Shown here in pieces: positions 3,287 through 36,647 of a stretch of DNA of 64,000 nucleotides (the first letter of the stretch is position 1; every line of letters begins with the position of its first letter). The position numbers and the translations under genes were made by a program. The notes below the pieces were generated by a model. The model saw only the letters and a program-made list of their open reading frames with translations, was not told the DNA's origin and searched no databases. The DNA is from Escherichia phage ukendt: the sequence record NC_052661.1; one strand, 5' to 3'.

Positions 3287-3556
3287 ATGAAAATATCATT
3301 GGACGTTGCAATCAAGGCCATCGAATCCGGTTACATCCTGGTAAAAGATGATAAGGCTAAAATAGTGCATCATGTTAACAAGGAAACAGGCGAGAGCATG
3401 ATCACATATAAAGCCGCCTACTTTCTCCAATCAGTAGCAGATCCGCGCGTACAACGCCAGGTTACAGCGGCTATTGCTAAAAAATTATGTGCTTTACAGG
3501 GTGCAAGTTTTAACGAGATTGCCCCGTGTTTTGAGTGGTCAAGCTTGAAAAAATAA
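3287..3556 (+). CDS. hypothetical protein (89 aa)
   Basis: ORF track; RBS aaagaggtaaatc. Confidence 0.55.
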   Translation: MKISLDVAIKAIESGYILVKDDKAKIVHHVNKETGESMITYKAAYFLQSVADPRVQRQVTAAIAKKLCALQGASFNEIAPCFEWSSLKK

Positions 3557-3557
3557 T

Positions 3558-3619
3558 TTGACAACAATTATAAATCGGGTAGAATGTATTTCGTAGGGCG
3601 GGGCAATAAGGCAACGCCC
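3558..3619 (+). promoter_or_regulatory. promoter TTGACA-N16-TAGAAT plus GGGCG..CGCCC hairpin
   Basis: -35 3558-3563; GTAGGGCGG box 3594-3619. Confidence 0.55.
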
Positions 3620-3634
3620 ATTAATGAGGGTAGA

Positions 3635-3742
3635 ATGATGTTAGAGAAAATTTTCACGGTTGTAATAGTGGGCCTGGCGTTATCGGTTGGAGTGGTTGCA
3701 ACTATGGCTAACATGATCCTATCTTCCCACGGTATCGGCTAA
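3635..3742 (+). CDS. hypothetical hydrophobic peptide (35 aa)
   Basis: ATG after RBS tgagggtaga; single predicted TM segment. Confidence 0.3.
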   Translation: MMLEKIFTVVIVGLALSVGVVATMANMILSSHGIG

Positions 3743-3752
3743 GGTGAAACAA

Positions 3753-3968
3753 ATGATCACGAATAAGACAGGTAAAACGGAATTTTTACGCGGCTTGCAA
3801 GTTGGTAAACCTGAGATCTGGCATTGTACTAAATCCGCGCATAATGAAATGAAAGATTTTACCGCTACTTTACAACGTGTTAAAATATCTATCACACAGA
3901 AAAAAGCCTTGTTAGTAGTAGAAAACGAGATCCCGCAAACTATTATTATTGTCGAGCGTACAGCATGA
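3753..3968 (+). CDS. hypothetical protein (71 aa)
   Basis: ATG after RBS aaggtga; track start 3744 is an upstream GTG. Confidence 0.45.
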   Translation: MITNKTGKTEFLRGLQVGKPEIWHCTKSAHNEMKDFTATLQRVKISITQKKALLVVENEIPQTIIIVERTA

Positions 3969-4351
3969 AAACAGAAATCATTATTGAAATCATCAACGGT
4001 TATAAAGAAGCCTTTATTTTTGCTGAATCAGCAAGGGATCATGAAGGTAATTTTATTGAAAACTTAGACGATTATGATTTTTCTCCTAGCGCGGACGAAC
4101 GGATCGCCCAGGATGTAACAGCCTTTATTAATGCTAATCTTGCCGCTATCTCTGAGGCAATGAGCGACGGCGCAACAGCCAACCAGATCGGGAATGATTT
4201 ACATTTTACCCGTAACGGTCACGGCGTAGGCTTTTGGGATCGCCCTGAAATATACACCACTAACACGGCGAACCGCCTAACCAATGCAGCTAAGTTTATG
4301 CCGAACGTGTCGGCTTACATTGGTGAAGATAATTTGATTTATATTGAATAA
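3965..4351 (+). CDS. hypothetical protein (128 aa)
   Basis: ORF track; ATGA start/stop overlap with upstream gene. Confidence 0.55.
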   Translation: MKTEIIIEIINGYKEAFIFAESARDHEGNFIENLDDYDFSPSADERIAQDVTAFINANLAAISEAMSDGATANQIGNDLHFTRNGHGVGFWDRPEIYTTNTANRLTNAAKFMPNVSAYIGEDNLIYIE

Positions 4352-4357
4352 AAAGTA

Positions 4358-4414
4358 TTGACACAGATCGCCAGTGTGCTAATATTTACCACGTAGGGCG
4401 GCAATGGTGCCGCC
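4358..4414 (+). promoter_or_regulatory. promoter TTGACA-N17-TAATAT plus hairpin GGCGGC-AATGGT-GCCGCC
   Basis: -35 4358-4363; perfect hairpin 4397-4414. Confidence 0.6.
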
Positions 4415-4432
4415 GATAATGAGGAAAGTAAA

Positions 4433-4732
4433 ATGGAAACTATCGCTATTGTTACCGTAGAAAAACTGGTTGTTGGTGATGTATTCGCGTTAATGGTGCC
4501 TAACAGCAGCAAGCTGGGCGCTTATGAAGTAATGGATCATAAAAATGAATCATTTGGCGACGGTTGCACAATGGCGGTAAAATCTTTAAAGGATGGAATT
4601 ATCCGCCAGGCTAACTGGCACAAAGGGAATCAAGTCGGTTTAATATCAGCTAATTTCTTGCCAGAAGAGCAAACGTTAGACCAACTATCAGGCGGTAAGA
4701 CGTTAGCCGAACTACTGGAAACAGCGATCTAA
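4433..4732 (+). CDS. hypothetical protein (99 aa)
   Basis: ORF track; RBS aatgaggaaagt. Confidence 0.55.
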   Translation: METIAIVTVEKLVVGDVFALMVPNSSKLGAYEVMDHKNESFGDGCTMAVKSLKDGIIRQANWHKGNQVGLISANFLPEEQTLDQLSGGKTLAELLETAI

Positions 4733-4740
4733 TCGACAAG

Positions 4741-4756
4741 GGGCGGCAACGCCCCC
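4741..4756 (+). promoter_or_regulatory. GC hairpin GGGGCG-GCAA-CGCCCC (tetraloop) with no promoter
   Basis: perfect 6-bp stem between two cistrons. Confidence 0.4.
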
Positions 4757-4785
4757 ATTAAACGCAATAGGAAGAGGATAGACAC

Positions 4786-5076
4786 ATGAAAAAGATGATC
4801 GCAGTAGTTGCCCTGGTTGTTGGTATTAACGCGCCTGTAATGGCGAAAGAGTTGCCAGAATCCATCACGTTAACCGATATCAACGCAATAAACCGGATCG
4901 GCGTTAATTATCGCCTATGCCTTGCCGCTAAAACTTTCCAGGACGGCACAACAGAGTACTACGGATTCGAGGGTACCCGCTGCGGTGAGCTTGCACGCGA
5001 CCTTAAGGAAGATCCAGACCTTGAGGCCATACCGATGACCGTAAACGGTAAAGCTTACGTAAACCGCCAACAATGA
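4786..5076 (+). CDS. hypothetical secreted protein (96 aa, N-terminal signal peptide)
   Basis: ORF track; MKKMIAVVALVVGINAPVMA signal-like N-terminus. Confidence 0.55.
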   Translation: MKKMIAVVALVVGINAPVMAKELPESITLTDINAINRIGVNYRLCLAAKTFQDGTTEYYGFEGTRCGELARDLKEDPDLEAIPMTVNGKAYVNRQQ

Positions 5077-34602: not shown

Positions 34603-34618
34603 TGCCCCCGAAGGGGCA
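34603..34618 (-). terminator. rho-independent terminator TGCCCC-CGAA-GGGGCA
   Basis: stem-loop followed by TTTCTT in minus sense, downstream of the HslV-like gene. Confidence 0.6.
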
Positions 34619-34623
34619 GTTTG

Positions 34624-35316
34624 TTAAATAGCGGTTCCTTCGAAATCCGCCACATTTACGAGATTAATATTTTCAGATTTAGAAGTCAAGTTGTTTTCTG
34701 CAACAGATTTTTCTTCAGTATCCGCCTCGTTACCTGCCACGTTACGAGGTTCTTCTTCACCGTAGGGATTACCGAATTTCAAAAGATTGATCAATTCTTC
34801 TTTGGAGAAGTTTTCTAAATCATCGTCTGTTAATTCAATAATCTCGTCTTGTTCTTCAACAAATGTTTCACCACCAGAAAAAGCATCTCGCTTTTTAGCT
34901 ACTTCCATAGCTTGTTCTGGTGTTGCCCCTGCGTCAAGAGCAGCTAAAGCAAAGTCTGACCCACTTCCTACTGCATAATATTCTTCATCAATCGGATATG
35001 CACGTGTTGGGTTGTTACCTTCGTGCAGGAAAATACGCCCGTCTGGATGAACAACAAGTGCAATAAACTCTTCATCTTCTTTATCTGGATCAGAGTGAAT
35101 CATCAAACCAGGGACAGCATCACGTGCTGCTTCGCACTGTAGATTTTGTTCAAACCATTGAAAGAAAGAAAGCACGGAGGTCAGACGACCAGCACCACCT
35201 ACAAGGTAATCTCCAATTTTTCGGACCTTTTTGAAATTAATAGAATCTACACGTCCACCAAAAGTTACCTTACCGTCACTCAAAATCTTATTTTTGGTTG
35301 CAATAATTGTCGTCAC
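34624..35316 (-). CDS. HslV-like Ntn-hydrolase peptidase with acidic C-terminal extension
   Basis: N-terminal MTTIIA (Thr nucleophile), KKVRK, GGAG, AVGSGSDFALAALDAG align in order with E. coli HslV as recalled. Confidence 0.65.
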   Translation of the reverse strand: MTTIIATKNKILSDGKVTFGGRVDSINFKKVRKIGDYLVGGAGRLTSVLSFFQWFEQNLQCEAARDAVPGLMIHSDPDKEDEEFIALVVHPDGRIFLHEGNNPTRAYPIDEEYYAVGSGSDFALAALDAGATPEQAMEVAKKRDAFSGGETFVEEQDEIIELTDDDLENFSKEELINLLKFGNPYGEEEPRNVAGNEADTEEKSVAENNLTSKSENINLVNVADFEGTAI

Positions 35317-35819
35317 TATTCTTCCTCCTCTGTTAATGTTTTAAGAACCGCTTTCCCGCCATTCACATATTTGCAGATGTATTCTATCGCACGTAGTGTC
35401 TCTTTGTCAACAAAAATTTGATCAGACGTTGCGAGCGGGTTATTAAGAAGATCACTACAATCACGAACAAGCAGTGCTTTCTTATTAAACAAATTACTTA
35501 AGAACAGTAACTTCGCCTCTTCTTCTGTTATGTGCAGAAGGCTAGGATCGGAGCCAGCTATTCCTATTATACAATCAAACAAGCTTTCTTTACTATCAGA
35601 AAGTTCTTGAAAATGGTTTAAAAGCCAATCTTCTCCTAGACACCAACATTTAAACATTTCCAGCTTATCTCGGAGGGTCATATTCTCTAAAGTAAGAGCA
35701 ATCTCTTTTTCAATATGGTTTACACAAATTTGACGAAATTCGTTAGGTTTTACGAGTCCCGTTTGATAGCACTCATCTATACCGCTTCTTCCGATAGCTA
35801 TTGTTGCTACACCCATCAA
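35316..35819 (-). CDS. hypothetical protein (167 aa)
   Basis: ORF track. Confidence 0.5.
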   Translation of the reverse strand: MMGVATIAIGRSGIDECYQTGLVKPNEFRQICVNHIEKEIALTLENMTLRDKLEMFKCWCLGEDWLLNHFQELSDSKESLFDCIIGIAGSDPSLLHITEEEAKLLFLSNLFNKKALLVRDCSDLLNNPLATSDQIFVDKETLRAIEYICKYVNGGKAVLKTLTEEEE

Positions 35820-35851
35820 TCCTCCTTATAAATGGCTTCCCTGCCACGTTA

Positions 35852-36610
35852 TTAAATAAACACTTCAGTAATCAGTTTAGACAAACGTCCACGTTTATTA
35901 TCGTCCGTTGTCAGTTCAACATATCCAATAAAATCTACAATTGGCTCACGAACACCTTCTTCATTCTCTGGATATAAAAGTTCCAAAATTTGATGCAGAC
36001 CATTGCTACGTTTTTTAATTGCATATGTCTGGCGAACATCGCCTAATACAATAACATGCGTATTAATACCTGCACGTTCAATAAGAAGTTTAAGTGTTTC
36101 TGTTGACATAAGTTGTGCTTCGTCAATAATGACGATTGTATTATCCAGGGTAGCCCCCAACAAATAGTTAGGAATATTCAATTCGATCTTACCTGATCCA
36201 ATATCGTTTTCCAATTTGTTAGCTGTCATGAATTGCTGGAAAATACGTTTTGTAGATTCATAGTGTGCTGCTAGTTTATCTGTTTTATCCCCAGACAAGA
36301 AACCAATCTGGTCATCTCCGACTTCAGTAGGGTTCTTGATAAAAAGTAGTTTACGGAAGTCTCCTGAACGAAGCATCTGCAAAGCTTTCCATAAAGCAAC
36401 AGAGGTTTTACCAGTCCCTGCCGGAGCATTTACAACAGTCAGATCATTCCAAATCATGCTTTGAACAATCTTATTTTGGTCCCCTTCAGGCATAAATTCA
36501 TCTAAACGGTAATCGTCATTACCTACCGCTTTTGCTGCATAACGGCTTTCAATCTTTGCTGAATTAGCCAGTTTCTGCCGTTGTGTTTTAGCTGCGGTTT
36601 TATTTCCCAT
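35852..36610 (-). CDS. phoH: PhoH-like ATPase
   Basis: Walker A APAGTGKTS and PhoH-like layout; start placed at MGNK after RBS aaggag because the upstream ATG lies inside a hairpin. Confidence 0.75.
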   Translation of the reverse strand: MGNKTAAKTQRQKLANSAKIESRYAAKAVGNDDYRLDEFMPEGDQNKIVQSMIWNDLTVVNAPAGTGKTSVALWKALQMLRSGDFRKLLFIKNPTEVGDDQIGFLSGDKTDKLAAHYESTKRIFQQFMTANKLENDIGSGKIELNIPNYLLGATLDNTIVIIDEAQLMSTETLKLLIERAGINTHVIVLGDVRQTYAIKKRSNGLHQILELLYPENEEGVREPIVDFIGYVELTTDDNKRGRLSKLITEVFI

Positions 36611-36630
36611 AGTAGCACTCCTTTTAGAAG

Positions 36631-36644
36631 GGGCCGAAGCCCCT
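36631..36644 (-). terminator. hairpin GGGGC-CGAA-GCCCC after the lysozyme gene
   Basis: identical to hairpins at 24543 and 42797. Confidence 0.45.
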
Positions 36645-36647
36645 TTA

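Follow-up and report, generated by a model that had tools for sequence, protein, structure and literature searches.

Fuchs, Alva and Lupas (2021) described PPH, the proteasome homologue of phages and their hosts, as a form of about 140 residues without helix H2, and the related RPC group, a separate cluster on the CLANS map (references WP_042125023.1 for PPH and WP_140207863 for RPC), as one in which H2 is also missing and a C-terminal extension is present; neither a co-occurring AAA+ partner nor a functional clue was found for the PPH/RPC homologues (PMC8665760). HslV genes without HslU were also noted in a jumbo-phage genome paper (PMC7823757), and in BPH, the Betaproteobacteria proteasome homologue (a tetradecamer; PDB 5ovs, 5ovt), an acidic pore loop and a lost HslU interface are coupled with HslU independence (PMC5777263). 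Literature searches for functional studies of HslV-like or PPH proteins from phages yielded nothing beyond the bioinformatic survey of 2021, genome notes and a single localisation, that of a fold-level superfamily relative in Erwinia phage RAY, which co-localises with phage DNA (bioRxiv 10.1101/2023.02.24.529968). In this work we analysed a gene of this kind in a 64,000-nucleotide stretch of Escherichia phage ukendt (NC_052661.1), the whole of which we call the window. The window is >99% identical to Phapecoctavirus genomes (phAPEC8-like E. coli myophages, Stephanstirmvirinae). The encoded protein is a member of a described and annotated family, and the core of the finding is already known: it is not new, because the gene is annotated in RefSeq (JR323_gp217, "peptidase HslV family", in the near-identical phage nepoznato, NC_052658.1) and because phage HslV homologues without HslU have been published. 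For a few features, a conserved helical tail motif, a conserved tail acidity, an adjoining conserved gene and a deletion of the catalytic N-terminus in one isolate, we found no earlier description. On balance we lean, if only slightly, towards a reading in which the protein would be an HslU-independent accessory Thr peptidase of the PPH type, which forms a ring complex, uses its tail for docking or recruiting and acts on basic or unfolded substrates.

The gene, its catalytic core and its start signals are placed as follows.

34624..35316, minus strand: coding sequence of the peptidase, an HslV-like (PPH-type) Thr peptidase of 230 amino acids (AA) (open reading frame call, PF00227, phrog_1040, fold)
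34624-34626, minus strand: stop codon of this coding sequence (read from the open reading frame)
34852..35316, minus strand: catalytic N-terminal nucleophile (Ntn) core, AA 1–155, with Thr2 (mature Thr1), Asp14, Lys30, Gly41 and Ser118 (conserved columns, HslV equivalence, predicted local distance difference test [pLDDT] >90)
35324..35330, minus strand: strong ribosome-binding site, GAGGAGG, 7 nucleotides (nt) before the GTG start codon (read directly from the sequence)

An earlier note on this DNA had taken the product for a proteasome-type, HslV-like Ntn peptidase, and this assignment holds. The protein scores 25.6 bits on Pfam Proteasome PF00227 (gathering cut-off 22.4), and its residues 1–229 match positions 14–247 of the 277 of phrog_1040 ("peptidase HslV family") with E=9.7e-64. 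In a sequence search of solved structures (phmmer) the best matches are all HslV, with T. maritima 1m4y at E=5e-9, and hhalign against E. coli HslV gives a probability of 97%. The AlphaFold2 monomer model, built from 41 homologues, has pLDDT >90 across residues 1–155, and the best Foldseek matches in the PDB are HslV (top, E=3e-10), BPH and 20S beta subunits, at E ~1e-10, which is what would be expected of the Ntn-hydrolase fold that had been proposed. The residues required for catalysis are strongly conserved. In an alignment of 41 sequences, with identity down to 27%, M1, T2, T3, I4, D14, K30 and G117-S118-G119 are invariant and G41-A42-G43 nearly so, and an MTT[IVL] start is found in 133 of the 150 best cluster representatives. 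The hhalign residue map places D14, K30 and S118 on Asp17, Lys33 and Ser124 of E. coli HslV, while G41 stands opposite the Gly45 position in the phmmer alignment and hhalign has a gap at Gly45. The motifs first picked out in the sequence do follow one another as in HslV, KKVRK holding K30 (Lys33), GGAG holding G41 (Gly45) and GSGS holding S118 (Ser124).

The N-terminus of the protein, MTTIIATK, is read from a GTG at 35316-35314. The placement of Thr1 depends on this start codon being the true one, and it is well supported: Thr is residue 2 because an in-frame TAA, 27 nt 5' of the GTG and with no ATG, GTG or TTG between the two, leaves no alternative start codon, and the GTG, the upstream TAA and the invariant MTTI together keep Thr directly after Met. 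Methionine aminopeptidase specificity is such that the initiator Met is removed, as in E. coli HslV, thereby exposing Thr1. From the sequence and the fold, we expect that the phage protein would lose its initiator Met in the same way and that Thr1 would then be the nucleophile of an Ntn peptidase. With its catalytic set intact in both alignment and model, the phage protein is probably an active Thr peptidase. Some GenBank annotations (for example Escherichia phage vB_EcoM-Ro121c4YLVW, protein P0023, 159 AA) begin at the internal Met72 or read hypothetical; the annotated products that start at Met72 are devoid of the Thr1 nucleophile because the GTG start was missed.

Judged by sequence and model, the phage protein is not a true HslV. 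It reaches 32.2 and 31.4 bits on the NCBIfam HslV equivalog models NF003964 and TIGR03692, below both cut-offs (137 and 157.75, respectively), compared with 303.8 and 288.2 bits for the E. coli HslV control, and its identity to E. coli HslV is ~27% (tblastn). In the model helix H2 is absent, as a single long helix H1 (residues 45–67) is followed by a loop.

35065..35115, minus strand: loop, AA 68–84 (VPGLMIHSDPDKEDEEF), in place of helix H2 and the pore motif, with the acidic cluster DPDKEDEE (model, alignment)

In HslV, the pocket for the C-terminal tail of HslU is made of F54 and F57 on H1, A79/K80 on H2, and Q114 (PMC6429459); these positions align to L49, F52, M72/I73 and P108 of the phage protein. 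The basic pore cluster of HslV, R86/R89/K90 (PMC5777263), aligns to K79/E82/E83 in DPDKEDEE, where D81 is nearly invariant among the 41 homologues. The match to BPH is marginal in sequence (E=1.1) and has a Foldseek E=7.6e-10, with the acidic cluster at the equivalent position and H2 absent. The earlier note had suggested that the phage protein might act with host HslU or as a decoy of it. This idea, in which the protein docks onto E. coli HslU and either builds with it an ATP-dependent hybrid protease of new specificity or draws HslU away from host HslV, relies on the facts that the host encodes hslVU, that the phage encodes no unfoldase co-occurring with the peptidase, and that the protein is an HslV homologue with hydrophobic residues at the F54/F57 positions of H1. 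It is nevertheless weakly supported, because H2 is missing (A79/K80/Q114 being replaced by M/I/P), because the charge of the pore cluster is reversed from basic to acidic and because the equivalog score is far under its cut-off. In addition, phages of Caulobacter, Rhizobium, Vibrio and Aeromonas encode members of the family whose tails are very different, and in BPH the loss of HslU-interface residues accompanies HslU independence (PMC5777263). A further candidate, that the C-terminus of the phage protein mimics the tail of HslU, which in E. coli reads EDLSRFIL, was rejected because the extreme C-terminus is not conserved among homologues, differing in every homologue lineage. We therefore consider a hijack or decoy of HslU decidedly unlikely.

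The absence of an HslU-like ATPase from the window, pointed out in the earlier note, was borne out by tblastn. With E. coli HslU as the query, neither the window nor the 92 kb searched of the reference phage nepoznato (~113 kb covered together) gave a match at E<=10, the matches of ClpX and Lon within the window were no better than chance (E>=1.6), and no HslU-, ClpX- or Lon-type ATPase is named in the annotation of the remaining ~38 kb of nepoznato. In that phage the ClpX query weakly matched the single AAA gene. This gene, gp114 (NC_052658.1 76595-77734, outside the window), encodes a 379-AA classic-clade AAA ATPase (PF00004, phrog_2376) and adjoins a large endonuclease gene; the second region of homology is present, the canonical pore-loop motif is absent, and the best PDB matches are Rix7, AFG2 and VAT at E ~1e-3. 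Its homologues are found in Enterococcus, Bacillus, Staphylococcus, Lactobacillus and Lactococcus phages (Herelleviridae-like, Gram-positive) and in jumbo Erwinia and Yersinia phages. The gp114-bearing Gram-positive phage genera are not among the peptidase matches, and gp114 is not among the leading matches in Vibrio, Caulobacter and Rhizobium peptidase phages. Since the phyletic distributions do not co-occur and the canonical pore-loop motif is lacking, gp114 was rejected as the missing unfoldase. A second ATPase gene lies close to the peptidase, and it is not of the unfoldase type.

35852..36610, minus strand: PhoH-like P-loop ATPase, two genes upstream of the peptidase, syntenic, longest open reading frame to 36661 (not an AAA+ unfoldase)

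The long acidic C-terminal extension reported in the earlier note was confirmed: residues 156–230 form a tail of 75 AA, 27% of them Asp/Glu, with a net charge of ~-15. It is made of two parts.

34759..34848, minus strand: conserved post-core motif, AA 157–186 (DEIIELTDDDLENFSKEELINLLKFGNPYG) (alignment of 33 homologues, model)
34627..34758, minus strand: distal tail, AA 187–230, acidic, predicted disordered, of variable length and sequence among relatives (pLDDT 45–54 beyond residue 190, composition)

The post-core motif is predicted to fold as two short helices, 164–169 and 172–181 (pLDDT 88–92), and is kept in homologues down to ~41% identity. Among the 150 best cluster representatives, about 45–50 have a tail 25 or more residues long, which is acidic in nearly all of them, and in at least 30 the motif directly follows the core. 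Across the family, tails range from 20 to 223 residues and maintain an Asp/Glu content of 18–36% and a net charge of -6 to -27 despite sequence drift. A hidden Markov model of the motif, run against 1,899 open reading frames from the ~113 kb of phage genome searched, matched only the peptidase itself, and the motif was rejected as an address tag common to other phage proteins. A Pfam scan of the relatives' long tails returned nothing apart from the Proteasome domain. In four long-tail relatives (P0075, P0078, P0133 and P0167) the C-terminal 35–40 residues have the pattern L-[ST]-x-x-E-L...K-x-x-L-x-x-x-I, which we take to resemble a helix-extension-helix (SAP or Rho_N type) nucleic-acid-binding motif and which has no Pfam match, and relatives P0061–P0071 carry an unassigned C-terminal domain of ~100 residues ending in KWRLHNA. 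Within the tail-coding part, a 'repeat_region' is annotated at window positions 34818-34861 (nepoznato record 35410-35453); no second copy was found in the gene, and it has no similarity to the other repeat_region in the examined parts of the nepoznato record.

Directly upstream of the peptidase lies a gene that we call X.

35316..35816, minus strand: gene X, 166 AA from its ATG, phrog_14834, all-helical (its stop codon overlaps the start of the peptidase; position as neighbour conserved within the clade)

The model of X is confidently all-helical (pLDDT 92), and the invariant motifs of the protein are ECYQxGLVKPNEFRQ, LVRDCSD and VDKETLRAIEYL. X has no Pfam, NCBIfam or informative fold match and is not a proteasome paralogue. 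The order ribonucleotide reductase (RNR), glutaredoxin, lysozyme, PhoH, X, peptidase is retained in metagenomic phage contigs whose peptidase is only 41–47% identical; the X homologues there have 29–37% identity (hhalign probability 99.6–99.9%) and lie on the same strand, upstream of the peptidase, separated from it by a gap of 9–37 nt or by one small open reading frame. The region is also marked by a deletion. In the phage VEcB record MT932211.1 (locus 1665-2468, corresponding to about 35130-36610 of the window), an in-frame deletion of ~1.18 kb joins PhoH AA 1–115 to peptidase AA 63–end, apparently at a common 'AAQE' microhomology, so that PhoH loses its C-terminal half, X disappears entirely and the peptidase is deprived of Thr1, Asp and Lys; the other VEcB record, OZ035773.1, is intact. 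Provided that the deletion is real, the PhoH-X-peptidase block is dispensable for propagation.

These observations raise the possibility of a two-component phage system, in which X, and possibly PhoH, would be a gate, an adaptor, an inhibitor or a factor that delivers substrates, and would bind the tail motif. The two genes appear to be translationally coupled, as the stop codon of X and the start of the peptidase share one base (TAGTG) here and overlap by 4 nt in Justusliebigvirus phage PD06 (sister genus); X keeps its upstream, same-strand position next to divergent peptidases, its motifs are strongly conserved, and in VEcB it is lost jointly with the C-terminal half of PhoH and the N-terminus of the peptidase. 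However, these genomes are collinear over the whole RNR-glutaredoxin-lysozyme-PhoH block, so the adjacency may be simply inherited and is only a lead. Furthermore, the tail motif is present in the proteins of Aeromonas phages and of Vibrio phage P018-4, where X is not found: an X homologue was sought within 3.5–4 kb either side of the peptidase in the Aeromonas, Vibrio, Caulobacter and Rhizobium loci, and there was none. The lack of an informative fold match for X also counts against a partnership, which we regard as unlikely, although it ranks first among the rival readings.

The genomic position of the peptidase bears on yet another role, that of a head-maturation (prohead) protease, which could be invoked because none is named in the RefSeq annotation of nepoznato. 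The portal and capsid genes are over 30 kb away from the peptidase gene, which is in a non-structural region, and VEcB appears viable without the catalytic N-terminus. Moreover, there is another candidate beside the portal gene: nepoznato gp002 (NC_052658.1 1313-1792), named 'DNA methyltransferase' in RefSeq, matches PF14550 Peptidase_S78_2 (XkdF-like phage serine protease) with E=1.4e-11 and is flanked by the portal gene on one side and by the scaffold-like and capsid genes on the other. Because of this match and this position, gp002 is probably the prohead protease, misnamed in RefSeq, and a head-maturation role for the HslV-like protein is extremely improbable.

The reading that we favour can now be given step by step. 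Once Thr1 is exposed, the peptidase would most likely form a self-compartmentalising ring complex, by analogy with HslV and BPH. It would work without HslU, as the unfoldase-independent BPH does; HslU-independent action is suggested because half of the docking pocket is missing and because an acidic loop stands for the basic pore entrance. With its acidic pore loop and tail, the peptidase would prefer polypeptides or peptides that are basic or unfolded, and the conserved helical motif with which the tail begins would serve for docking, to the core itself or to a partner, for instance protein X. The gene, which lies in the non-structural region (the block of nucleotide metabolism, lysozyme and PhoH), would be an accessory one, probably dispensable in the laboratory. 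Several points weigh against parts of this reading. The loss of H2 might alter or abolish ring assembly, and the selection of substrates by electrostatics is something that we purely infer. The hydrophobic L49 and F52 leave some contact with HslU possible. The tail is wholly missing from the short PPH forms and is for this reason dispensable for core function, and the VEcB deletion could be an assembly artefact, given the intact second record. Finally, no activity, oligomeric state or substrate has been demonstrated in the literature for any PPH-type protein, and BPH, which of the unfoldase-free relatives with known structures is the closest, showed no activity in purified form on the standard substrates that were tried (PMC5777263).

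The inertness of BPH and a possible unsuitability of H2-less subunits for classical ring assembly are also what could be expected if the protein were not a general peptidase at all, but a specific processing enzyme, a ligase or an amidohydrolase whose target is a single protein, of the phage or of the host, or a small molecule. There are precedents in the superfamily, which holds the monomeric protein ligase connectase and many non-protease Ntn hydrolases (PMC8665760). Nevertheless, the closest relatives of the phage protein in sequence and fold are HslV, BPH and 20S beta subunits rather than connectase, and the model has no connectase-like insertion over the active site, which makes such a chemistry very improbable. 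A bolder extension of the HslU-independent peptidase that we favour is that the tail-bearing subfamily and X form a self-contained, ATP-independent 'mini-proteasome', whose pore loop, strongly negative, and tail, flexible, acidic and DNA-like, would capture basic nucleic-acid-binding host proteins (nucleoid proteins, defence nucleases) for degradation, the conserved tail helix docking or gating. The hints in this direction, none of them strong, are the tail acidity kept despite drift, the helix-extension-helix-like ends of some tails and the association of the phage RAY relative with phage DNA, and we find this extension quite improbable.

Possible transcription signals flank the gene.

35381..35410, minus strand: sigma-70 promoter-like site TTGACA-18-TAGAAT (11/12), inside gene X, ~65 nt upstream of the GTG (consensus match only)
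34603..34618, minus strand: terminator-like hairpin UGCCCC-UUCG-GGGGCA followed by UUUCUU, 5 nt past the stop codon (consensus match only)

The hairpin has a minimum free energy of -15.3 kcal/mol (z = -2.3). We give little weight to the two sites because neither the promoter-like site nor the terminator-like hairpin is present in PD06. GC-rich hairpins with GAAG or UUCG tetraloops occur at gene boundaries, at 36627-36646 (plus strand), at the lysozyme/PhoH junction, and at 34603-34618 (both strands), just past the peptidase stop, and may be recurrent transcript-end or stability elements of the phage.

The family to which the peptidase belongs is widespread. Homologues are present in 234 phage records, among them Escherichia, Vibrio, Caulobacter, Aeromonas, Rhizobium and Klebsiella phages, and a profile search of 1.8 billion cluster representatives returned 64 proteins at E<=1e-30 and 5,356 at E<=1e-10, the latter count probably including bacterial HslV itself. 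Aeromonas phage 4L372D carries two adjoining HslV-family paralogues (locus 3432-3983 and 4001-4885). The upstream one is a true HslV-family protein of 183 AA, with an MTCII start, GCGE instead of GSGS and a longer post-H1 region, and the other is a 294-AA tail-bearing form; together they may make up a proteasome-like assembly of two subunits. Proteasome-like peptidases without an ATPase partner are encoded by phages and prophages in their thousands, and one solved case in a tractable E. coli phage would reveal the role of an unfoldase-free proteasome relative, be it host takeover or counter-defence. The locus described here is suited as a test system, with its small gene, conserved tail motif, conserved neighbour and apparent natural deletion variant.

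In conclusion, the phage protein can be compared with known groups of proteasome relatives. It shares with HslV (ClpQ), a double ring of twelve subunits that HslU and ATP stimulate, the fold, the MTTI N-terminus, the equivalents of Asp17, Lys33, Gly45 and Ser124 and the order of the motifs, but it differs by the absence of H2 (half of the HslU pocket), an acidic pore cluster, the lack of a neighbouring hslU and an extra acidic tail. The 20S proteasome beta subunits have the Ntn fold and the catalytic residues in common with it, whereas the phage protein is much smaller and has no alpha ring, propeptide, H2 or H5. BPH is, like the phage protein, an HslV descendant without unfoldase, with an acidic position in the pore loop, non-conserved HslU-interface residues and a Thr1 exposed without a propeptide; in contrast with the phage protein, it is bacterial, retains H2, has a longer pore loop and lacks the acidic tail. 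The RPC group has a C-terminal extension, yet the distribution table of Fuchs et al. marks RPC for Proteobacteria only, and not for phages. With PPH the shared features are several: both are encoded by tailed phages, are Group I proteasome homologues nearest HslV and BPH, have Thr1 directly after Met without a propeptide, retain the catalytic triad, miss H2 and have no AAA+ partner, and the match to phrog_1040 is full-length. The difference lies in size, as PPH was described with ~140 residues, and forms of 137–160 AA are more distant relatives of the phage protein, which has a core of ~155 residues followed by a 75-residue acidic tail with a helical motif.

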